A stretch of DNA of 64,000 bases from a virus. Lineage: Duplodnaviria; Caudoviricetes. Below are positions 28,987 through 37,059 of this stretch, in pieces. How positions within the stretch are numbered: the stretch's first letter is position 1; each line of letters starts with the position of its first letter. The position numbers were made by a program, and so were the translations under genes. Under the pieces are notes generated by a model that had not been told where the DNA came from, did no database searches, and saw only the letters and a program-made list of their open reading frames with translations. The DNA is taken from IMG/VR virus record IMGVR_UViG_3300029288_000118, positions 29,987-93,986 of that record. The stretch is one strand, 5' to 3'.

Positions 28987-29945
28987 TGATGAATACGAGA
29001 GATACATTATTATACAGTATAGCTACGGAATTGCAATTATTGCGAGACTATATAAACAGGCTTCCAAAGGTTAAAGAAAGTAGCATAGGTGGACAACTAT
29101 GGACAGATTTTTTAAAAATATTTCTCAGTAGAAGAGAAGAAAAAACAAATTATGCTTTTCCCAGCAAAACCACAGCATTGTTACACAATCTTTTTGGCGA
29201 TTGTGATACCGATGAAATAGGAGATCCAATAAGTATTTTAGATTTTGAAAAAGCGACCTATGCTATCCATAAAGCACGAGGGACAGAAAATGGGATATTA
29301 GCCGATATTAAAAGAATCTGTAACAGTGTCAACGTAGAAGTAAGAGGATATCCACAAAGTCAATGTGGTTGGATAGGGGATGTTACAAGCCCGGAATTTG
29401 CGTGGAAAATTCTGGACGATACAGGAGGGAAGATCACGTTTGATTTGCCAGCAGATGGAGGTGAATTCGGGGATACTCCATCCGAGACTGTTGATGGTGG
29501 TTCCTTCGGTATACCAATAACTGAACCCGGAATAATAGAATTTATATTCACAGAGAATGCAACAACGATATTAGCGTTACTCGGTATAACAGAAAACTGG
29601 GAAGATTTAGACGGTATAACGGAAATAATGGTCACAACGGAACAAGCGAGCAGTGTTTTATTCTCTGGATTGGGCACATTATCAATGTTCGGCAAAACAC
29701 TGGAACAGATAGAAGATTATTTTTCAGCCGATATGTATATAAACGCAAAGGCATTGATCAGTGTAAATGCGCTTATTTATGATCCTGACAACTCATTGTG
29801 TTATATGGATTTAGACAACATGGTTCTTATTGATGCAGAGAATAATGGTGGAAGATCATCTTTAGAGATAGAAAATATTATAAGACATGATTTTGTGCCC
29901 ATAAAGTATAATATAAAAACAAACATTGAAAGAGTGCCAGTATGA
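28986..29945 (+). CDS. Baseplate wedge gpI-like protein with acidic insertion
   Basis: HKARGTENGI..DI motif and C-terminal FVP; central DGGEFG/DGGSFG insertion. Confidence 0.6.
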   Translation: MMNTRDTLLYSIATELQLLRDYINRLPKVKESSIGGQLWTDFLKIFLSRREEKTNYAFPSKTTALLHNLFGDCDTDEIGDPISILDFEKATYAIHKARGTENGILADIKRICNSVNVEVRGYPQSQCGWIGDVTSPEFAWKILDDTGGKITFDLPADGGEFGDTPSETVDGGSFGIPITEPGIIEFIFTENATTILALLGITENWEDLDGITEIMVTTEQASSVLFSGLGTLSMFGKTLEQIEDYFSADMYINAKALISVNALIYDPDNSLCYMDLDNMVLIDAENNGGRSSLEIENIIRHDFVPIKYNIKTNIERVPV

Positions 29946-30331
29946 AAAAGTTATTTTTATTATTTGTGACAATGATTGTCTGCACAATAGATGCATCTGG
30001 ACAATCTAATGTAGAGTATACCCCTAATTTCAAATTCAGAACTATCAAAAAAGGATATACAGGGGATTGGGCTGGATCCCAGAGGGACACAACGGCAAAC
30101 AGCGGATTAAACTACAATGCATTAATGAATGAAATATTGTGGAGTATGATATTTACATCGACTTATTCAGTGAATCAAACACTGAAAGACTCGGTATTAA
30201 ACGGTGGTCGATTACAGCTTCATACGATAGTAGCTGGAGATAGTGTGTTTGGCAGGATATTCGTGCGAGATACCGATACAACTCTCGTGTTTTGGAATGG
30301 AGGATGGAAAGTGATTAAAGATTTAAGGTAG
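29942..30331 (+). CDS. Exported protein with a fibre-N-terminus-like motif
   Basis: Signal peptide ending DASG-Q; YTPNF.F....G..GDW......GLNYN. Confidence 0.55.
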   Translation: MKKLFLLFVTMIVCTIDASGQSNVEYTPNFKFRTIKKGYTGDWAGSQRDTTANSGLNYNALMNEILWSMIFTSTYSVNQTLKDSVLNGGRLQLHTIVAGDSVFGRIFVRDTDTTLVFWNGGWKVIKDLR

Positions 30332-30370: not shown

Positions 30371-31027
30371 ATGAAAAAGATAGCAATTACTTTATTATTC
30401 CTTATCGGAATAATTTCACTATCAGCTTCTCAGAACTTGCTGATAAAAACGAATGAGGGATGGAAAGCTCTTGACGGTACATTCAATTATGATAATAATA
30501 ATATTTCCATACCTCAGCCAGTTACAGAGGGAGTGATATTGCCTTCGGCAAGTACTCATATTTGGGCTGCTGGTGGCTCAGTGATCGCTGATACGCTGGG
30601 GACGGACGTTTCTTGCTCTAATGGAGCACGATATTGGGTAGAACTCATGATCCCTTATAATGTGACATTGACAGGCTTGTCTTATTTAGTAGGCTCAGTG
30701 GGCGGGACTGATTCTGTGGTAGTTCAGTTATGTAGTTCAACAGGAGTTGAGGTTGCGACTTCACGAGCACCTGGTTCTGCTGCCGTAATAGTAGGAACCG
30801 CAAAACAATTTCAGAGCGTTCCGTTTACTACGCCTTATGTGGCTAAAGCAGGTCTGTATTATGCAACAGTACAATTTAATGGCACGACAGCAAAATTCAG
30901 GACATATTCAGTGCCAGGAAGCAAGTTTATAGGTGCTTCAGCGGCCGGGACCTGGCAAACGAAAGCCAACATTACGCCAGGAACGACGTTCACGGTGGAT
31001 AAAGCACCTATCATAATAACGTATTAA
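30371..31027 (+). CDS. Exported beta-sandwich protein
   Basis: Signal peptide ending SLSAS-Q; VTLTGLSY.VG...QSVPFTTPYVAKAGLYY. Confidence 0.6.
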   Translation: MKKIAITLLFLIGIISLSASQNLLIKTNEGWKALDGTFNYDNNNISIPQPVTEGVILPSASTHIWAAGGSVIADTLGTDVSCSNGARYWVELMIPYNVTLTGLSYLVGSVGGTDSVVVQLCSSTGVEVATSRAPGSAAVIVGTAKQFQSVPFTTPYVAKAGLYYATVQFNGTTAKFRTYSVPGSKFIGASAAGTWQTKANITPGTTFTVDKAPIIITY

Positions 31028-31057: not shown

Positions 31058-32716
31058 ATGCAAGGCGGATTATTCAATAAATCGGGGTTATTTATAACCC
31101 TTAAAATGCTTGATACTGCATTTAATCTAAGAAGCGAGGCATTGAGTGCTATGTTTGAAAAAATGTCTTCTCAATACGGAATTATTCTTCAGAGAAGTCA
31201 ATCCGCCTTGCTGAGAACAAATATCTTAACAGGAAACAATACAAATTTTGCTGCTGGTCTAGGTGACTGGAGTGGTTCAGGTACAACTTGGGATAGTGTT
31301 GGTAACAGGATGAAGATTACAAGTGGTATAGCAACCATCTATTTAAACTTATTGGCGTACGGTTATGGGACATACAGGATATCTTTCACGATGGCAACTG
31401 GATCAGTCCATTACGTGAGATTGAACGGAGAGCTTGTTACTTTTTCTTCTGGCAGCTCCATATCTTGGACTGGACTCATTACTATCACATCTGGGAATCT
31501 GGCTAATATGTCATTAAGTATTGAAGCGGATACTGGAGCGATACTATATGTAGATAATATTGTATTCGAGGCATTAAATACTTTTGTGAACTCAGATGAT
31601 GGCTTCTGTTCTATCGATGGCACAGACGTGGAAATAAAAGCGTTTGATGCGATAGTTAAAGACACGGATGGCATGATGAAATCAATAATCGTTCCCAGTG
31701 ATGATAGTATTGATTTTAATGGAACGCATGCAGATGGAACATGGAAAGTTCTTGCGCAGGTTAAGAAGGTTTATAATGAAGAGGGGACTATAGCATTTAC
31801 TAACGGGAGCAAGAATGTAACAGGGACGGGCACGGAATTCACGAAACGTCTCGGCAGGAGAATGAAACTCGTTATAGTAGATAGCACTTTAGGTAACGAT
31901 GGTGTGTATGAGATATCAACAATAACGGATGATACCCATCTCGTATTAAAAAATACATACACAGGTACATCAGAAAGTGATTTACCTTTTTCTTCAGGCG
32001 CAGTATTTCCGGATGTGAGTTTCCTACCAGCTACATATTCAGAGTACAGAGCTTATGAAATGGAATCTTATGAATTCGTAGTAACTCAGGATGCCGTAGG
32101 TTCACATCAAATATATTTATGCGATGTTGTAATAGCCGGAGGCGTACCAGTTTCAGTAGAAGACAAGAGAACGGCTTTTACATTGTCTCCTCATGCACAT
32201 TATTTGTCGGACATAACAGATTTTATGGTTAAAGCTGGAAAAATCTTAGGAGAAGGAACGGGCAAAGCGGTTGACGGTGCTACAGTAGTAGTGAATGAAG
32301 CTGGCGAATTAGCTGTGGACTCAGACGGGCTGGTTGACGATGATACGATAGAGGTTGACGACGATGGAAAACTTGCATTAAAAAGTTTAGGCTATCAAAT
32401 ATATTGGGCAAAAATTACACAATCCGGCACTGCTGATCCAAGTTTAATAGTAGTTAAAAACGATCTCGATGGAGCTGCACCAGCGTTTACCCGTCACACG
32501 AATGGAGAATATTATGCGGACTTTGAAGGCGGTGCGGACGTTAATAAAGTGTTTGCCAGAATAAACCAAGCGAGGGGAGCACAAAAAGTATTGCAAAGTG
32601 ACGTTGTATATTATTCCGGGAAGATGAGAGTTTGGATATACTCACTTAATTCAAGTTTTGTAGTTGCCGACAGTTTGTTGACTGGTGACTTGTTAGAGAT
32701 TGTTGTTATGCCCTAA
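31058..32716 (+). CDS. Baseplate-attached tail fibre/receptor-binding protein (no signal peptide)
   Basis: CBM-like N-domain; GTIAFTNGSKNVTGTGTEF, VEDKR, PHAH..SDITDF and VDDDTIEV motifs. Confidence 0.75.
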   Translation: MQGGLFNKSGLFITLKMLDTAFNLRSEALSAMFEKMSSQYGIILQRSQSALLRTNILTGNNTNFAAGLGDWSGSGTTWDSVGNRMKITSGIATIYLNLLAYGYGTYRISFTMATGSVHYVRLNGELVTFSSGSSISWTGLITITSGNLANMSLSIEADTGAILYVDNIVFEALNTFVNSDDGFCSIDGTDVEIKAFDAIVKDTDGMMKSIIVPSDDSIDFNGTHADGTWKVLAQVKKVYNEEGTIAFTNGSKNVTGTGTEFTKRLGRRMKLVIVDSTLGNDGVYEISTITDDTHLVLKNTYTGTSESDLPFSSGAVFPDVSFLPATYSEYRAYEMESYEFVVTQDAVGSHQIYLCDVVIAGGVPVSVEDKRTAFTLSPHAHYLSDITDFMVKAGKILGEGTGKAVDGATVVVNEAGELAVDSDGLVDDDTIEVDDDGKLALKSLGYQIYWAKITQSGTADPSLIVVKNDLDGAAPAFTRHTNGEYYADFEGGADVNKVFARINQARGAQKVLQSDVVYYSGKMRVWIYSLNSSFVVADSLLTGDLLEIVVMP

Positions 32717-32759
32717 AGATAATAATTAGAGCACGAATCAGGTCTCTATTGGGTTACAT

Positions 32760-32789
32760 ATTATATTATAGTACATTATATTACAGTAC
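32760..32789. repeat. 15-bp tandem repeat upstream of the endolysin gene
   Basis: ATTATATTATAGTAC ATTATATTACAGTAC. Confidence 0.7.
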
Positions 32790-32804
32790 ATAACAAAGAT
32801 TACT

Positions 32805-33218
32805 ATGGCTGATATTAATTTATCGTTCAAGAAAACATTTAAAAACGAGGGTGGTTATACTCATAACTCTCATGACACAGGGAAAGAAACATATAAAGGC
32901 ATCAGTATCGTATTTAATCCTGACTGGCCGGGTTGGAAGATAATACACAAAACAATTAAATCTCTGGGAATCAATAACACACTCGATTGTTCATTATCAA
33001 CGAGAACAAAAATTGATAATGCTCTTGAGAATCTACCTGAATTACAAGAGCAGGTTATAAAACTCTACAAAGTTAAATACTGGGATCCACTTAATCTCGA
33101 TAACGAGCCAAATCAGATTATTGCTGATTCAGTATTTGATAGCGCGGTATTGATAGGAGTTATGCGAGAAAAAAAATCTATAGAAGATGCAAGGAAGAAA
33201 GCCGATGAAATCATTTAA
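32805..33218 (+). CDS. Endolysin, glycosyl hydrolase family 108
   Basis: EGGY...D.GKETYKGIS, YKVKYWD and VFDSAVL.G motifs; no C-terminal PG-binding domain. Confidence 0.88.
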   Translation: MADINLSFKKTFKNEGGYTHNSHDTGKETYKGISIVFNPDWPGWKIIHKTIKSLGINNTLDCSLSTRTKIDNALENLPELQEQVIKLYKVKYWDPLNLDNEPNQIIADSVFDSAVLIGVMREKKSIEDARKKADEII

Positions 33219-33531
33219 TATATGCATACTTATAATTACTGCTTTATTCACAGGTTGTTTTCAGAAAAGTAATAATACCTATCCTCAGAGCAGAGAACTC
33301 AAAATGATTGATAGTCTGAAAACAGTGATAGCTCAAAAAGACTCCGCTTATAATGAATTAAAAAACGATTATAAAGCCTGGATTACTCTAACATTTGACA
33401 CAGAAAATCATTGCCTTGTATTTGCCGAATCTGTTAAAAAAAACCCAAAAAACACTGTATTTATAGTAGGTTGGACAAAAAGGACATTCAACTGGGCGCA
33501 CGAGTGGAAAAAAAATAAAAAAATAACTTGA
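33205..33531 (+). CDS. Lipoprotein, spanin-like
   Basis: Lipobox LFTG-C, coiled coil, overlaps the end of the endolysin gene. Confidence 0.55.
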   Translation: MKSFNICILIITALFTGCFQKSNNTYPQSRELKMIDSLKTVIAQKDSAYNELKNDYKAWITLTFDTENHCLVFAESVKKNPKNTVFIVGWTKRTFNWAHEWKKNKKIT

Positions 33532-33555
33532 CAATAAAAAGATATCTTTTATATT
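33528..33555 (+). promoter_or_regulatory. Sigma70-type early promoter containing a 14-bp palindrome
   Basis: TTGACA-N16-TATATT; AAAAGATATCTTTT at 33537-33550. Confidence 0.65.
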
Positions 33556-33592
33556 ACTTGTTGTTAATAACAAGTAAGTAAAGGATAAAACG

Positions 33593-33781
33593 ATGTCAAG
33601 AACCATTAACCCCTCCAAATTTAAAAAACTGAGAAAGAAACTTGGATTATCAATTCAGGCTGTCGCGCTGGAGATGATGAATCAAGTATCGTTCAGCACA
33701 CTTTACAACTTCGAGCACGGAATGCCTGTTAGCGATAAAACAAAAGAAGAAATAAATAAATGGATAACAACAAAAAATTAA
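33593..33781 (+). CDS. Cro/XRE-family HTH regulator
   Basis: KKLRKKLGLSIQAVA...VSFSTLYNFEHG. Confidence 0.85.
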   Translation: MSRTINPSKFKKLRKKLGLSIQAVALEMMNQVSFSTLYNFEHGMPVSDKTKEEINKWITTKN

Positions 33782-33806
33782 CCATACAACGTAAAGGAGA
33801 AAAACG

Positions 33807-34217
33807 ATGAAAACACTGATCTATATACTTGCCGTAATAGCACTACTGTCGTTTACATCATGTGAAAAAGAATATCCGGTATACATCCAAAAAGAACCCG
33901 AATATAAAATGTGCACGGGTTTTATTTCTCAATACGGCACAGACGATCCGATAGTAACAACCACGTATAATACTCTTCCCGGCGAAATAAGATGGAAAAG
34001 GTTCGCTGTAGGCATGTATGAGGGATATCTTAAAAACGCTTTTAAACCTTATGGGAAAACAATTTGTATTATTTCCTCTGGATATGCAGGTTATTATTAT
34101 TTTTCAAGAGGGAGCGATGATACTATCAATTTATATTCGTTTTCGTATTTAACCGATACCTATGCAGATAACTCAATCGAGTATGTATCATTTTTAATAC
34201 TTGTGTGCCCTGAATAA
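33807..34217 (+). CDS. Lipoprotein made of a tail-fibre C-terminal-like domain
   Basis: Lipobox SFTS-C; mature part aligns with the C-terminal ~105 aa of 31058-32716. Confidence 0.7.
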   Translation: MKTLIYILAVIALLSFTSCEKEYPVYIQKEPEYKMCTGFISQYGTDDPIVTTTYNTLPGEIRWKRFAVGMYEGYLKNAFKPYGKTICIISSGYAGYYYFSRGSDDTINLYSFSYLTDTYADNSIEYVSFLILVCPE

Positions 34218-34243
34218 ACTATATAATATAAAGGAGTTTTATT

Positions 34244-35383
34244 ATGGCAGAAGAACAATCATCTCACACAGACCAGCTTAAAAGTCTGTATACACAATAT
34301 CCGAAAGATAAGTACAACATACTTTTCCCGACGGAAACACTGATGCAACTTTCCCCCCTGCAACAAGTGAACTATGAATTGTTATACATAGACCCGACAC
34401 CAATGCCTCAAGGGCAAGATGTATTCAGTATTGGTAAAAAGGAATTCGATGAAAAATGGATAGAAGTATTCTCATTTAGCAAAACAGCCTTACAGAAACT
34501 TGCTCACGCAGCGGGGATCCAAATTGATCATTCCAGTTCCGGTTATATACCGACAGGCAATCCAAGAAGTGCGGGATATAAAATTGTTGGAGCAATTCAA
34601 AAGCCGGACGGCACATGGCAGAGACTAACCCAATCAAAAGTTGTGGATGTCGATGTCACAGTTGAAAAAACGAGGTTTAAATATGAAAGCCTACTTCAAG
34701 CTGGTAAACTCTCGACTGGTAGTGGAGACAAAAAGAAAATCTACAAAAACGATACGGAGGGTAAAAAATACATCGAAAACAAGATCAAAGAAGAAGAACT
34801 CAGGATTTTAGAGTTCAAAGAAGCACTGGCAGAAACAAAGGCTTATACGCGTTTAGTTAGAGCATTACTTGCTCTGAAGGGCTACTATACACGAGAGGAA
34901 TTAAAAAAGCCATTCGTAGTTGTTAAGATATCGCTTAACATTCATTACATGATGTCAAACGATTCGATGAAACAACAATTGGTATCACATGCCATTGCGA
35001 GTCAGAATGCTATGTTTGGATTACCACCAGCCGAGATTCAACAACGTAGACAACTTTCACAAAACGTAGAAGTTACGGATGCGGTAGTAGTAGGGGACGA
35101 TGGGGACGATGATTTAGAAAAGACTCCAAAATTAGAAATTGAACCCCAGGGTAACCCTGTCCGCGATGTTCCACTTCCAGAGGTTATTGATTTATTTAAA
35201 AAAGCAAAACCTCAAGATCGAATTGAATCACTAAAGTCATGGATTGAACGCAAGGGATACACGCCAAAACCGGGACTTCCGAAGCCAGAAGAAATGACTT
35301 TAGAAGAGCAAGTTAAATATCTTACCCATTTGCACGGGCTGAAAGATGTTGAAAAAACAGAGGAACGGGATTTAATTTTCTAA
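34244..35383 (+). CDS. Putative single-strand annealing/recombination protein
   Basis: KTALQKLAHAAGI and AETKA..R..R..L.LK..YT.EELKKPFVV motifs; upstream of sbcDC. Confidence 0.45.
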   Translation: MAEEQSSHTDQLKSLYTQYPKDKYNILFPTETLMQLSPLQQVNYELLYIDPTPMPQGQDVFSIGKKEFDEKWIEVFSFSKTALQKLAHAAGIQIDHSSSGYIPTGNPRSAGYKIVGAIQKPDGTWQRLTQSKVVDVDVTVEKTRFKYESLLQAGKLSTGSGDKKKIYKNDTEGKKYIENKIKEEELRILEFKEALAETKAYTRLVRALLALKGYYTREELKKPFVVVKISLNIHYMMSNDSMKQQLVSHAIASQNAMFGLPPAEIQQRRQLSQNVEVTDAVVVGDDGDDDLEKTPKLEIEPQGNPVRDVPLPEVIDLFKKAKPQDRIESLKSWIERKGYTPKPGLPKPEEMTLEEQVKYLTHLHGLKDVEKTEERDLIF

Positions 35384-35536
35384 TTATCAGGCAGGATGCT
35401 GTTTCGACTTTTTAATTTTCCCCCCTTAATTAAAAGGTCTAATGGTATCCTGTTATTATATTCAGCCCGCCTTAAATCGGCGGGATTATATTGCGTTCGC
35501 AAGGAAAGGAGGTATCTGAAGCAGGTGCGTATCGTT

Positions 35537-35610
35537 CGAGAATAGAGTGTAGAGTAAACAGCACAGCAGACTTGCAATCTGAAAGTGGAGTTCGATTCTC
35601 CAGTTCTCGA
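35537..35610 (+). tRNA. Atypical tRNA-like gene, anticodon TGC (nominally Ala)
   Basis: Cloverleaf: acceptor CGAGAAT/GTTCTCG, D-stem GTGT/GCAC, loop CTTGCAA, T-arm TGGAG-TTCGATT-CTCCA; lacks U8, D-loop GG and G3:U70. Confidence 0.6.
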
Positions 35611-35778
35611 TTTAAAGATACAAAGGTTTAACTGAGGTTAAATCGACGAGGCGGACATGAAAAGTTACATGCGACCGCTAAACCTAAACTAAACAACATA
35701 CATCATATTAATAGAGATGATAGCACTCACGGGTGCAGAGTCATGAATGCAATTGGGCACTCTGCACCTATATTTAAC

Positions 35779-35807
35779 TTGACAACGGAAATATTATTTA
35801 TTAAAAT
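35779..35807 (+). promoter_or_regulatory. Sigma70-type promoter for the sbcD operon
   Basis: TTGACA-N17-TAAAAT. Confidence 0.75.
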
Positions 35808-35835
35808 TGAACATCATAAAACGTAAAGGTCATAT

Positions 35836-37059
35836 ATGAAAATCCTGCACATTGCTGATCTCCATTGGTCCACAAAACATCTTTCCAAATGCATCAATTC
35901 TTCCATTCAAATAGAAACTATTGCGAAAGATGAGCAACCAGAACTAATAATAATTTCCGGAGACATTCAGGATAGCATACTAACGGTCGAAGACGAAACA
36001 GCGTATGCTCCGATGCTGAAGCATATTCAGATATTAGCCGATATTTCACCGATGGTGATTTTATACGGCAATGACAATCATGACGCACCAAAGAGTTTGG
36101 ATCCAATAAAACTTCTTGAAACGCAACATCCAATATGCATTTCAGATTATCCGCAAACATTATACATGCAAGATCATTATGGTGAAAAATCTTTTTACAC
36201 AGAGCCAGAAGATAAAAACACTATTTGTACCATTCATACCCTTCCGTACCCTACAAAAGAATTTCTACTCCGAGAGCAAAAAGAAAATCAGCAGATCGAC
36301 GATCTTAATCAACTTGCTATTGATAATTTAAAAATGATATTCACAGGAATGCAGACACGCAATATTGACGGGATTCCAACCATACTGGCATTTCACGGCA
36401 ATGTATCCGATTCAAAAATCAGCAATGGTCAAACTATCAGCACTCATGCAAAAGACATTATAATACGTAAAGACGATCTTGAATTATCCGGCGCGGATTA
36501 CATAGCTGGAGGACATATACATTTGAATCAAATGTTCTCTCCAAAAGGCGGATACGCTGGAAGCACGTATCATGTGAACTGGGGGGAGACCGAAAAGAAA
36601 TTCGTAAATTGCGTAGAGATTGAACCTGGAAAACTACCTAAGATCAGAGCCATTGAACTAACGTCTACGCGACCAATGGTAAAGCATGAATGTGAAATTA
36701 CTAAAAGCGGTTCAATTCGAGACAAAAATGAAGTAGCGGATTGTTGTGTAGAAAATGATTGGCAGGGAGCGGATCTTCGAGTAAGAGTAACAATGGATGA
36801 AGAACAGCGTAAGACTTATGATGAAAACATTGTTAAACAATTCTATGCAGGTGCATTCAGCTATCAAATTGAACCGGAAACTATTTATGTTGAGAGATCA
36901 AGGAGCGAAAACATAGGGAGGGCGACAAATTTAGTAGATCAATTCAAAGAATGGGCTACGGCTGTAAATAAAGAAGACAAGATAACAGAAGATGTGATAT
37001 CCGAGATTCATGAAATCGAATTAGAATATAACAAGAAAGGAATGTATAACAATGAGTAG
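35836..37059 (+). CDS. sbcD: SbcD/Mre11-like nuclease
   Basis: ADLH, SGD, GNDNHD, AFHG and GHIH metallophosphoesterase motifs. Confidence 0.9.
   Translation: MKILHIADLHWSTKHLSKCINSSIQIETIAKDEQPELIIISGDIQDSILTVEDETAYAPMLKHIQILADISPMVILYGNDNHDAPKSLDPIKLLETQHPICISDYPQTLYMQDHYGEKSFYTEPEDKNTICTIHTLPYPTKEFLLREQKENQQIDDLNQLAIDNLKMIFTGMQTRNIDGIPTILAFHGNVSDSKISNGQTISTHAKDIIIRKDDLELSGADYIAGGHIHLNQMFSPKGGYAGSTYHVNWGETEKKFVNCVEIEPGKLPKIRAIELTSTRPMVKHECEITKSGSIRDKNEVADCCVENDWQGADLRVRVTMDEEQRKTYDENIVKQFYAGAFSYQIEPETIYVERSRSENIGRATNLVDQFKEWATAVNKEDKITEDVISEIHEIELEYNKKGMYNNE

Follow-up and report, generated by a model that had tools for sequence, protein, structure and literature searches.

We analyzed a 64,000-nucleotide stretch of viral DNA (the window), which is the right-hand 64 kb of the 93,986-bp virus record IMGVR_UViG_3300029288_000118, a record rated complete. 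A 136-residue lipoprotein encoded in this window and the last 110 residues of the tail fiber are two members of one uncharacterized family of beta-sandwich knob domains. As a sequence-only reading of the window had proposed, the lipoprotein is a stand-alone version, with an export signal, of the fiber C-terminal domain; profile hidden Markov models (HMMs), hhalign and predicted folds agree on this point. On the sequence, the models and the analogies set out below, occupancy of receptors by the exported, lipid-anchored knob would be its most likely function, with a probability of roughly one in three. The argument turns on three features:

31058-32716, plus strand: tail fiber gene, 552 amino acids (aa), the last gene of the tail module (from the list of open reading frames [ORFs]; PHROG tail-fiber families match residues 237-413 with E values of 7e-8 to 5e-6).
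32381-32713, plus strand: fiber C-terminal knob domain, residues 442-552 (HMM, hhalign, AlphaFold2 model, common BFVD and PDB neighbors).
33807-34217, plus strand: knob lipoprotein gene, 136 aa, second gene of its unit (translation, HMM, AlphaFold2 model).

Direct comparison of the two sequences gives little sign of their kinship. BLASTP of the lipoprotein against the fiber reported no C-terminal alignment, an end-to-end pairwise alignment of the lipoprotein with the fiber end had a z score of 1.1 (not significant), and Smith-Waterman alignment returned a block of 27 residues only (Y..I.Q.GT.DP..N.L.G; score of 42, z score of 3.6), which was equaled by 7 of 1,000 shuffles. Word-index homology searches brought up a single relative of the lipoprotein, its 96% identical sister, and none of the fiber end, and an exhaustive HMMER search was needed. 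Run with the lipoprotein over 1.84 billion cluster representatives, it recovered 530 relatives at an E value of ≤1e-3. We built a family HMM from the best 149 of these 530, using neither the lipoprotein nor its near-identical sister. This HMM scores the lipoprotein at 165 bits and matches the fiber at residues ~442 to 549 with a domain E value of 2e-13 (46 bits; HMM positions 28 to 131 of 134); it has no further match in the 94-kb genome beyond the fiber end and the lipoprotein. In hhalign, a profile of twelve lipoprotein-type members aligned with the fiber end over 102 columns with a probability of 96.7% (E value of 3.3e-10). The two proteins are also joined transitively through a relative designated P0008, to which the fiber end aligns at 61 bits (E value of 7.6e-12 at whole-library size) and the lipoprotein at an E value of 8e-10.

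The HMM-guided alignment pairs lipoprotein residues 29-133 with fiber residues 442-550, with identity at 21 of 104 positions, and both window proteins end 2 to 3 residues beyond the last profile position; that is, the domain runs to the C terminus in each. The claim that the two align end to end holds for profile, hhalign and fold and fails for BLASTP and pairwise alignment (z score of 1.1); its columns agree with the HMM-guided alignment except that the IYS/LYS block is shifted by one residue. Chance resemblance of unrelated beta-rich sequences, in favor of which the silence of BLASTP and the low z score of the global alignment can be cited, has next to no probability; it is ruled out by the profile E value of 2e-13, the hhalign result, the 61-bit link and the structural neighbors that the two domains have in common.

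AlphaFold2 models, made with family alignments, give both proteins the same architecture. The lipoprotein model (predicted local distance difference test [pLDDT] score of 92.5) consists of a helix at residues 2-16, corresponding to the signal, a short linker and then eight strands, and the model of the fiber end (pLDDT of 91.4) has eight strands in the same order. A search of BFVD returned the same eight best matches for both models (E values of 1e-7 to 1e-10, template modeling [TM] scores of ~0.7), among them the structural protein of Flavobacterium phage lotta8-1 and the tail fiber of Olleya phage Harreka_1, and ESM Atlas models of the two proteins agree in matching one and the same pair of viral clusters, with TM scores of 0.73 to 0.81. 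The two models thus agree in strand order and in their top BFVD matches.

More distant structural relatives are fainter. Foldseek found no match in the PDB, and a profile search of PDB sequences found no relative. An exhaustive structural aligner ranked PDB entries in the same order for both models: residues 454-565 of the phiAB6 tailspike (Z scores of 7.3 and 6.8 for the lipoprotein and fiber end models, respectively), VP37 of white spot syndrome virus (WSSV) (6.4 and 6.7), PRD1 P5 (5.1 and 5.8), and TNF, BAFF, APRIL, C1q, AP22 gp53 and the Oekolampad receptor-binding protein (RBP) (4.4 to 5.5; 4.5 for AP22 gp53, entry 4mtm). These Z values are below the level of family assignment and typical of the trimeric jelly-roll knobs that form the distal ends of viral attachment proteins. 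The window domains resemble such knobs (phiAB6 tailspike C-terminal domain, 5js4; PRD1 P5, 1yq5/1yq8; WSSV VP37, 7dda; AP22 gp53, 4mtm; TNF, BAFF and C1q) in being eight-stranded beta-sandwiches of ~100 residues, a fold placed here too at the distal end of a fiber; they differ from proven kin of these knobs in that the Z scores reach only 4.4 to 7.3 at 5 to 12% identity and in that the window knob is known from monomer models. Language-model searches gave leads to PF21882 (Gp53-like_C) and PF09458 (H-type lectin) with scores of 0.79 to 0.82, a range reached by shuffled sequences too.

The family comprises 530 representatives at 50% clustering and has neither a Pfam nor a PDB entry; no Pfam model matches the lipoprotein, the fiber or 102 relatives. 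Median identity within the family is 37%, and its signature has Y-K-V-Y-T-A-L-L-T-Q-x-G-T-x-A-P toward the beginning of the domain and I-E-I-R-V-Y at its end. Nearly always, the domain forms the C terminus of the protein that carries it, which is 100 to ~1,000 residues long, and PHROG matches of the relatives are scattered over tail-fiber families and arise from the N-terminal parts. Some members are built solely of tandem copies of the domain, two or three in number (P0008, 343 aa; P0004, P0010, P0011 and P0019), and it is one repeat of P0008 that is the nearest relative of the window fiber knob. In 50,697 deposited phage genomes, the domain occurs only in Flavobacterium phages (70 records), Olleya phages (2 records) and one uncultured megaphage, where it is the C terminus of proteins whose annotation reads structural protein or tail fiber; the tblastn matches in Flavobacterium phages fall at the very C terminus of a 634-aa "structural protein." The fiber ends of Flavobacterium phages pippi8-1 (gp046), lotta8-1 and elemo and of Olleya phage Harreka_1 belong to the same sequence family and fold and are the top BFVD matches for both window models; in these phages, the domain forms part of long virion proteins that are made in the cytoplasm without a signal peptide, which are annotated by similarity only. 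A degenerate motif scan of IMG/VR found at least 120 contigs, essentially all of them with the domain. Among bacterial genomes, the domain is found mostly in Flavobacterium and other Bacteroidota, with a few cases in Proteobacteria, Acidobacteriota and other metagenome-assembled genomes. The knob family normally ends tail fibers of Flavobacteriia-type phages.

Among the matches listed, about one-tenth of the long fiber-like members (400 to 1,079 aa) begin with a classic signal peptide of the M-K-K...A-Q type, and predicted export of fiber-like proteins therefore seems widespread in this phage group. One of these members adjoins a tape-measure gene in a Flavobacterium genome. The signal-peptide fiber-like members are as follows:

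IMG/VR: L013 (2688-5927), L021, L030, L065, L069, L089, L109 and L117.
Flavobacterium genomes: L144 (2532-4154) and L145 (93-2774).

The lipoprotein itself consists of a signal peptide (residues 1-18), the lipobox cysteine (Cys19; 33861-33863), a linker (residues 20-31) and the knob domain (residues 32-133; 33900-34205). Its N terminus has the features of a signal peptidase II substrate, namely M-K (K2), an 11-residue hydrophobic core and the lipobox S-F-T-S-C19, and shows a weak match to a Porphyromonas lipoprotein family signal in NCBIfam. Pfam, PHROGs and NCBIfam hold no family for the protein. An AAGGAG sequence lies 8 nt upstream of the ATG. A 95-kb sister phage with the same synteny, whose fiber is 94.7% identical to the window fiber, differs in the lipoprotein gene by 13 synonymous and 5 nonsynonymous changes. 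The resulting dN/dS of 0.095 is comparable to those of the endolysin and of the whole fiber between the two phages and indicates purifying selection; we conclude that the lipoprotein gene is maintained.

How the exported knob could act is suggested by the company that the domain keeps. The lipoprotein would be exported and lipid anchored in the envelope of the infected cell, where the knob would bind the kind of surface ligand bound by the fiber knobs of the family. Bound in this way, it would occupy or mask receptors, so that further phages would not adsorb and progeny released by lysis would not be lost to debris by unproductive adsorption, an outcome that would amount to lytic conversion or superinfection exclusion. 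We rate receptor masking as most likely because of the fold, which is that of distal attachment domains, the proximity to fiber genes in unrelated phages, the occurrence as a moron in a provirus and the precedent of T5 Llp. Llp is a small lipoprotein whose gene neighbors that of the RBP and which abolishes use of the receptor (PMC9586334), and the proposed effect of Llp and Cor is that the receptor is made unusable on the infected cell (PMC9586334). In addition, purified T5 RBP pb5 blocks infection when added to cells (PMC9586334). Like T5 Llp and the T1/phi80-type Cor, the window protein is a small phage lipoprotein whose gene lies close to the RBP or fiber gene, here 1.1 kb downstream. Llp itself is periplasmic, acts allosterically on FhuA and is not described as related to pb5 (PMC9586334). 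The window lipoprotein is twice as long as Llp, all-beta and a homologue of the family to which the distal domain of the fiber belongs; Pfam, PHROG and NCBIfam show no relation to Llp or Cor, whose sequences were not compared with it directly.

Lipoprotein forms of the domain recur in other phages. Of the 150 nearest relatives, a dozen or so besides the window protein carry a lipobox-type signal peptide, and another ten or so carry an ordinary one. In an alignment of 12 lipoprotein-type relatives, every sequence has the lipobox cysteine, and the residues behind it are rich in K and E (C-E-K-E, C-K-K-E or C-E-K-K). Three arrangements can be distinguished. In the tandem type (L004, and L210/L211 with 11 contigs), a short fiber of 177 to 186 aa that ends in the domain is followed directly on the same strand by the lipoprotein, within a baseplate/tail operon of Baseplate_J, wedge protein, short fiber, lipoprotein, minor tail protein and Gp44-like genes; the P0042 and P0058 contigs have the same gene order and sizes. 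The second type is an opposite-strand singleton (P0031, P0106 and P0104), moron-like, at the end of tail or lysis genes. The third type is represented by this phage and its sister, in which the lipoprotein gene is second in a unit headed by a helix-turn-helix (HTH) gene behind the lysis genes. In the L209 and P0031 contigs, the lipoprotein gene immediately adjoins fiber or tail genes. Such recurrence next to fiber genes is what a fiber-related exclusion factor would predict, and on this point the sequence-only reading is supported. A metagenome scan for the family returned almost only fiber forms, and IMG/VR searches with the single proteins P0042 and P0031 found nothing. Exported versions of the domain are not significantly richer in cysteine, which would have hinted at adaptation to an oxidizing compartment, than the other versions (0.8 versus 0.44 per domain; P = 0.09). 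One further protein (L212, 8001-8933; 310 aa) combines a lipoprotein signal (S-L-T-A-C) with a C-terminal knob domain and is encoded where a tail module (tape measure, DUF6046 and tail proteins) usually ends in its tail fiber gene.

The singleton arrangement can also be read differently. Opposite-strand singletons that lack a partner fiber of the family, seen in a provirus and in several other contigs, would suit a surface or periplasmic lectin or adhesin carried as a moron, which would bind a glycan or protein in order to change the cell surface, aggregate cells or capture nutrients and would have no part in exclusion; its tie to fibers would then go no further than the reuse by phages of a convenient binding fold. 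Flavobacterium genomes also encode long family proteins that start with ordinary signal peptides, one of them beside nonphage genes (a leucine-rich repeat protein and DUF4833), which is in line with such a role, as are weak leads to H-type lectin, Gp53-like_C and carbohydrate-binding modules (Z scores of ~4). However, the contexts recovered are mostly phage tail modules. Moreover, no tyrosine integrase (PF00589) was found in the complete record, other recombinase families not having been searched, and the phage looks lytic, so that a long-term benefit to the host is hard to see. We consider a lectin or adhesin moron unlikely.

For receptor masking, it matters whether the lipoprotein tracks the knob of its own phage. 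In the tandem lineages, the fiber and lipoprotein domains of one genome are 47 to 48% identical, although the short fiber and the lipoprotein directly behind it were also scored at 47% identity in L004 and 39% in L210/L211; between tandem genomes, identity is 44% for fiber and fiber, 47% for lipoprotein and lipoprotein, and 38 to 47% for cross pairs. Pairs within a genome are therefore as similar as orthologues between genomes, and in L004 the fiber and lipoprotein domains are each other's nearest relatives. This similarity is suggestive of concerted evolution or repeated duplication, a weak signal from only two lineages. The window pair behaves differently. Although each window domain matches ~126 of 132 other family domains by BLASTP, the two share ~20% identity and do not match each other at an E value of 10. 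The lipoprotein is thus a member of the knob family and not a recent copy of the tip of this phage's fiber, contrary to the earlier description of it as a copy, and the anticipated covariation of the two domains is suggested in two tandem lineages and not in this phage. Being far from its own phage's knob and nearer to the family consensus, the lipoprotein would be no less likely to act against competitors with consensus-type knobs than against its own phage.

In a maximum-likelihood tree of 157 domain copies, most of the branching order is unresolved, with support for 7 of 154 branches; the fiber copy sits on a long branch with one P0008 repeat, far from the lipoprotein, a placement to be read with the poor resolution in mind. 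Parsimony counts 7 changes, of which the supported branches force only 2, and this tree cannot tell a single origin of the lipoprotein form from multiple origins. It is conceivable, if somewhat doubtful, that Flavobacteriia-type phages have repeatedly turned the fiber knob into an exported, lipid-anchored, receptor-saturating protein and that in the tandem lineages this protein coevolves with the neighboring fiber knob.

Several observations weigh against receptor masking. The window pair is among the most divergent in the family (no BLASTP match at ~20% identity), so that the same binding specificity is not expected from sequence. The P0104 provirus (84% complete) has the lipoprotein and no second copy of the domain, that is, no fiber of the family. 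The tandem lineages carry the lipoprotein gene in a late tail operon and not among early genes. The C-terminal beta-sandwich of a tailspike can serve trimerization instead of binding, and this domain, too, may not be the receptor-binding part. Finally, the published signal for surface export of lipoproteins in Bacteroidota is C-X-K-(D/E)2 (PMC5080379). The residues from Cys19 onward are C-E-K-E-Y-P, with E at +2, K at +3 and one acidic residue after the K; the E-K-E-Y flank resembles this signal but matches it only in part. Surface exposure of the lipoprotein is therefore uncertain, as is a Bacteroidota host, and at a periplasmic location the lipoprotein could not meet the ligand that the fiber meets from outside.

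The tandem arrangement bears on another possibility, which is that the lipoprotein acts in assembly of the virion or its appendages, as a docking site, holder or assembly factor for exported fiber-like proteins or as a stand-in for a fiber assembly gene. Phages of the P2 and Mu types carry a fiber assembly gene directly behind the fiber gene, and this is the slot that the lipoprotein gene occupies in the tandem lineages. Exported fiber-like proteins could be its partners: two tail-module proteins encoded just upstream of the fiber have signal peptides, as do about one-tenth of the long fiber-like viral members among the matches listed, and the L212 protein in the fiber position itself has a lipoprotein signal. 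However, a lipid-anchored protein exported by Sec cannot chaperone a fiber that folds in the cytoplasm, and the fiber of this phage has no signal peptide. By the family HMM, the domain is absent from the exported virion-module proteins of this phage, so that there is no partner for a knob-to-knob hetero-oligomer, and the suggestion in the sequence-only reading of a holder for exported parts is unsupported. In this phage, moreover, lysis genes and a promoter of its own separate the lipoprotein gene from the tail operon. An assembly role is improbable, and receptor masking remains the reading that we prefer.

Were masking confirmed, it would constitute a bacterial-virus counterpart, on the infected or lysogenic cell, of the receptor interference caused by retroviral Env, in which a cell-associated attachment domain saturates the receptor and blocks the entry of viruses that use it. 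The likeness is one of mechanistic concept only, between different proteins from different virus worlds. To our knowledge, the characterized receptor-blocking phage lipoproteins (Llp and Cor) are all small and unrelated to the RBP, and our literature searches found no phage lipoprotein or exclusion factor homologous to a fiber or RBP, which is not proof of absence. To derive an exclusion factor from the attachment domain itself would be another, very direct way of blocking receptors. In genomes, such a factor could easily be recognized as a match to the family profile preceded by a lipobox, the fiber/lipoprotein pairs of tandem lineages would report receptor specificity, and a handle on the receptor specificity of many uncultured phages of Bacteroidota-type hosts would be gained. 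If the function is exclusion, the protein is a variant within the known class of exclusion lipoproteins; otherwise, it is a new architecture of an unnamed fiber domain. Whatever the function, a large domain family without a Pfam or PDB entry has been delineated here; it forms the fiber ends of phages of Flavobacterium and Olleya and of numerous uncultured viral contigs.

The locus places the lipoprotein gene at a boundary between gene blocks. The large genes of the window are all on the plus strand, and around the lipoprotein the order is fiber, endolysin, a 107-aa lipoprotein, a gap with a promoter, an HTH gene, the 136-aa knob lipoprotein and a 379-aa gene. The remaining features of the region are as follows:

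32805-33218, plus strand: endolysin (GH108), marking the end of the late and lysis genes (PF05838, E value of 2.3e-16; phrog_315, endolysin).
33208-33531, plus strand: second lipoprotein gene, 107 aa, with the lipobox F-T-G-C, overlapping the 3' end of the endolysin gene (ORF translation).
33528-33555, plus strand: sigma70-like promoter, TTGACA-16-TATATT, in the intergenic gap (11 of 12 consensus positions).
33556-33575, plus strand: operator-like palindrome, ACTTGTT-N6-AACAAGT, directly 3' of the -10 box (read from the sequence).
33593-33781, plus strand: small HTH (Cro/CI-type) regulator gene, 62 aa, first gene of the unit (PF01381 HTH_3, 24.0 bits against a cutoff of 23; HTH_19, E value of 2.9e-5).
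34244-35383, plus strand: 379-aa gene of unknown function, third gene of the unit (phrog_13782, E value of 3.3e-37).
35466-35484, plus strand: terminator-like hairpin, the probable end of the HTH-lipoprotein-379-aa unit (the sole terminator-like site in 32000-36000).
35779-35807: second intergenic promoter, TTGACA-17-TAAAAT, 29 nt upstream of an SbcD-like gene (35836-37059).

The location of a lipoprotein gene 0.6 kb downstream of the GH108 endolysin gene might suggest an accessory lysis protein, the outer-membrane component of a spanin. Outer-membrane spanin subunits are short and proline rich, and unimolecular spanins have a C-terminal membrane helix. The knob lipoprotein is a globular beta-sandwich of 105 residues up to its last residue, in a high-confidence model; the other lipoprotein gene, the promoter and the HTH gene lie between it and the endolysin gene, and in other phages its gene is found among baseplate genes. 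A spanin role is very improbable, and we reject it on the anatomy of the protein. The 107-aa lipoprotein may be an accessory to lysis or some other factor of the envelope; it does not belong to the knob family (no match to the family HMM; E value of 2.4) and has no informative match in Pfam, PHROG or NCBIfam.

The position of the knob lipoprotein gene as second behind a sigma70-like promoter and a small HTH_3 gene, which the sequence-only reading had reported, was confirmed, coordinates included. The HTH gene, the lipoprotein gene and the 379-aa gene likely form one unit, because they follow a promoter and an operator-like palindrome, begin with the HTH gene, are separated by gaps of 25 to 26 nt (26 nt, without a terminator, between the lipoprotein gene and the 379-aa gene) and have no terminator before 35466. 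The palindrome, which is 20 bp long and near perfect, occurs once in the window, and the count of its pattern is not above chance; judged by its position, it looks like an autoregulatory operator. For the 379-aa protein, phrog_13782 was the sole match, with no Pfam or NCBIfam family. The unit sits at the border of the lysis and DNA-metabolism genes, with SbcD- and SbcC-like genes after the second TTGACA promoter, and because it heads the DNA-metabolism genes, its operon structure makes early expression plausible.

On the far side of the fiber gene, the two tail-module proteins directly upstream of it (29942-30331 and 30371-31027, plus strand) begin with typical Sec signal peptides.

As for the host, the knob family points to Flavobacteriia-type bacteria, and the frequency of Shine-Dalgarno sequences fits a Bacteroidota host poorly: a Shine-Dalgarno core lies within 20 nt of the start in 55% of 85 long genes versus 14% of random positions. 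Both Shine-Dalgarno cores and promoters of the TTGACA/TATAAT type are unusual for Bacteroidota. Genome-wide, four such promoter sites lie outside large ORFs, at 33528, 35779, 48354 and 58791; the first two are 29 to 38 nt upstream of a gene start, and the other two touch or run into the start that follows.

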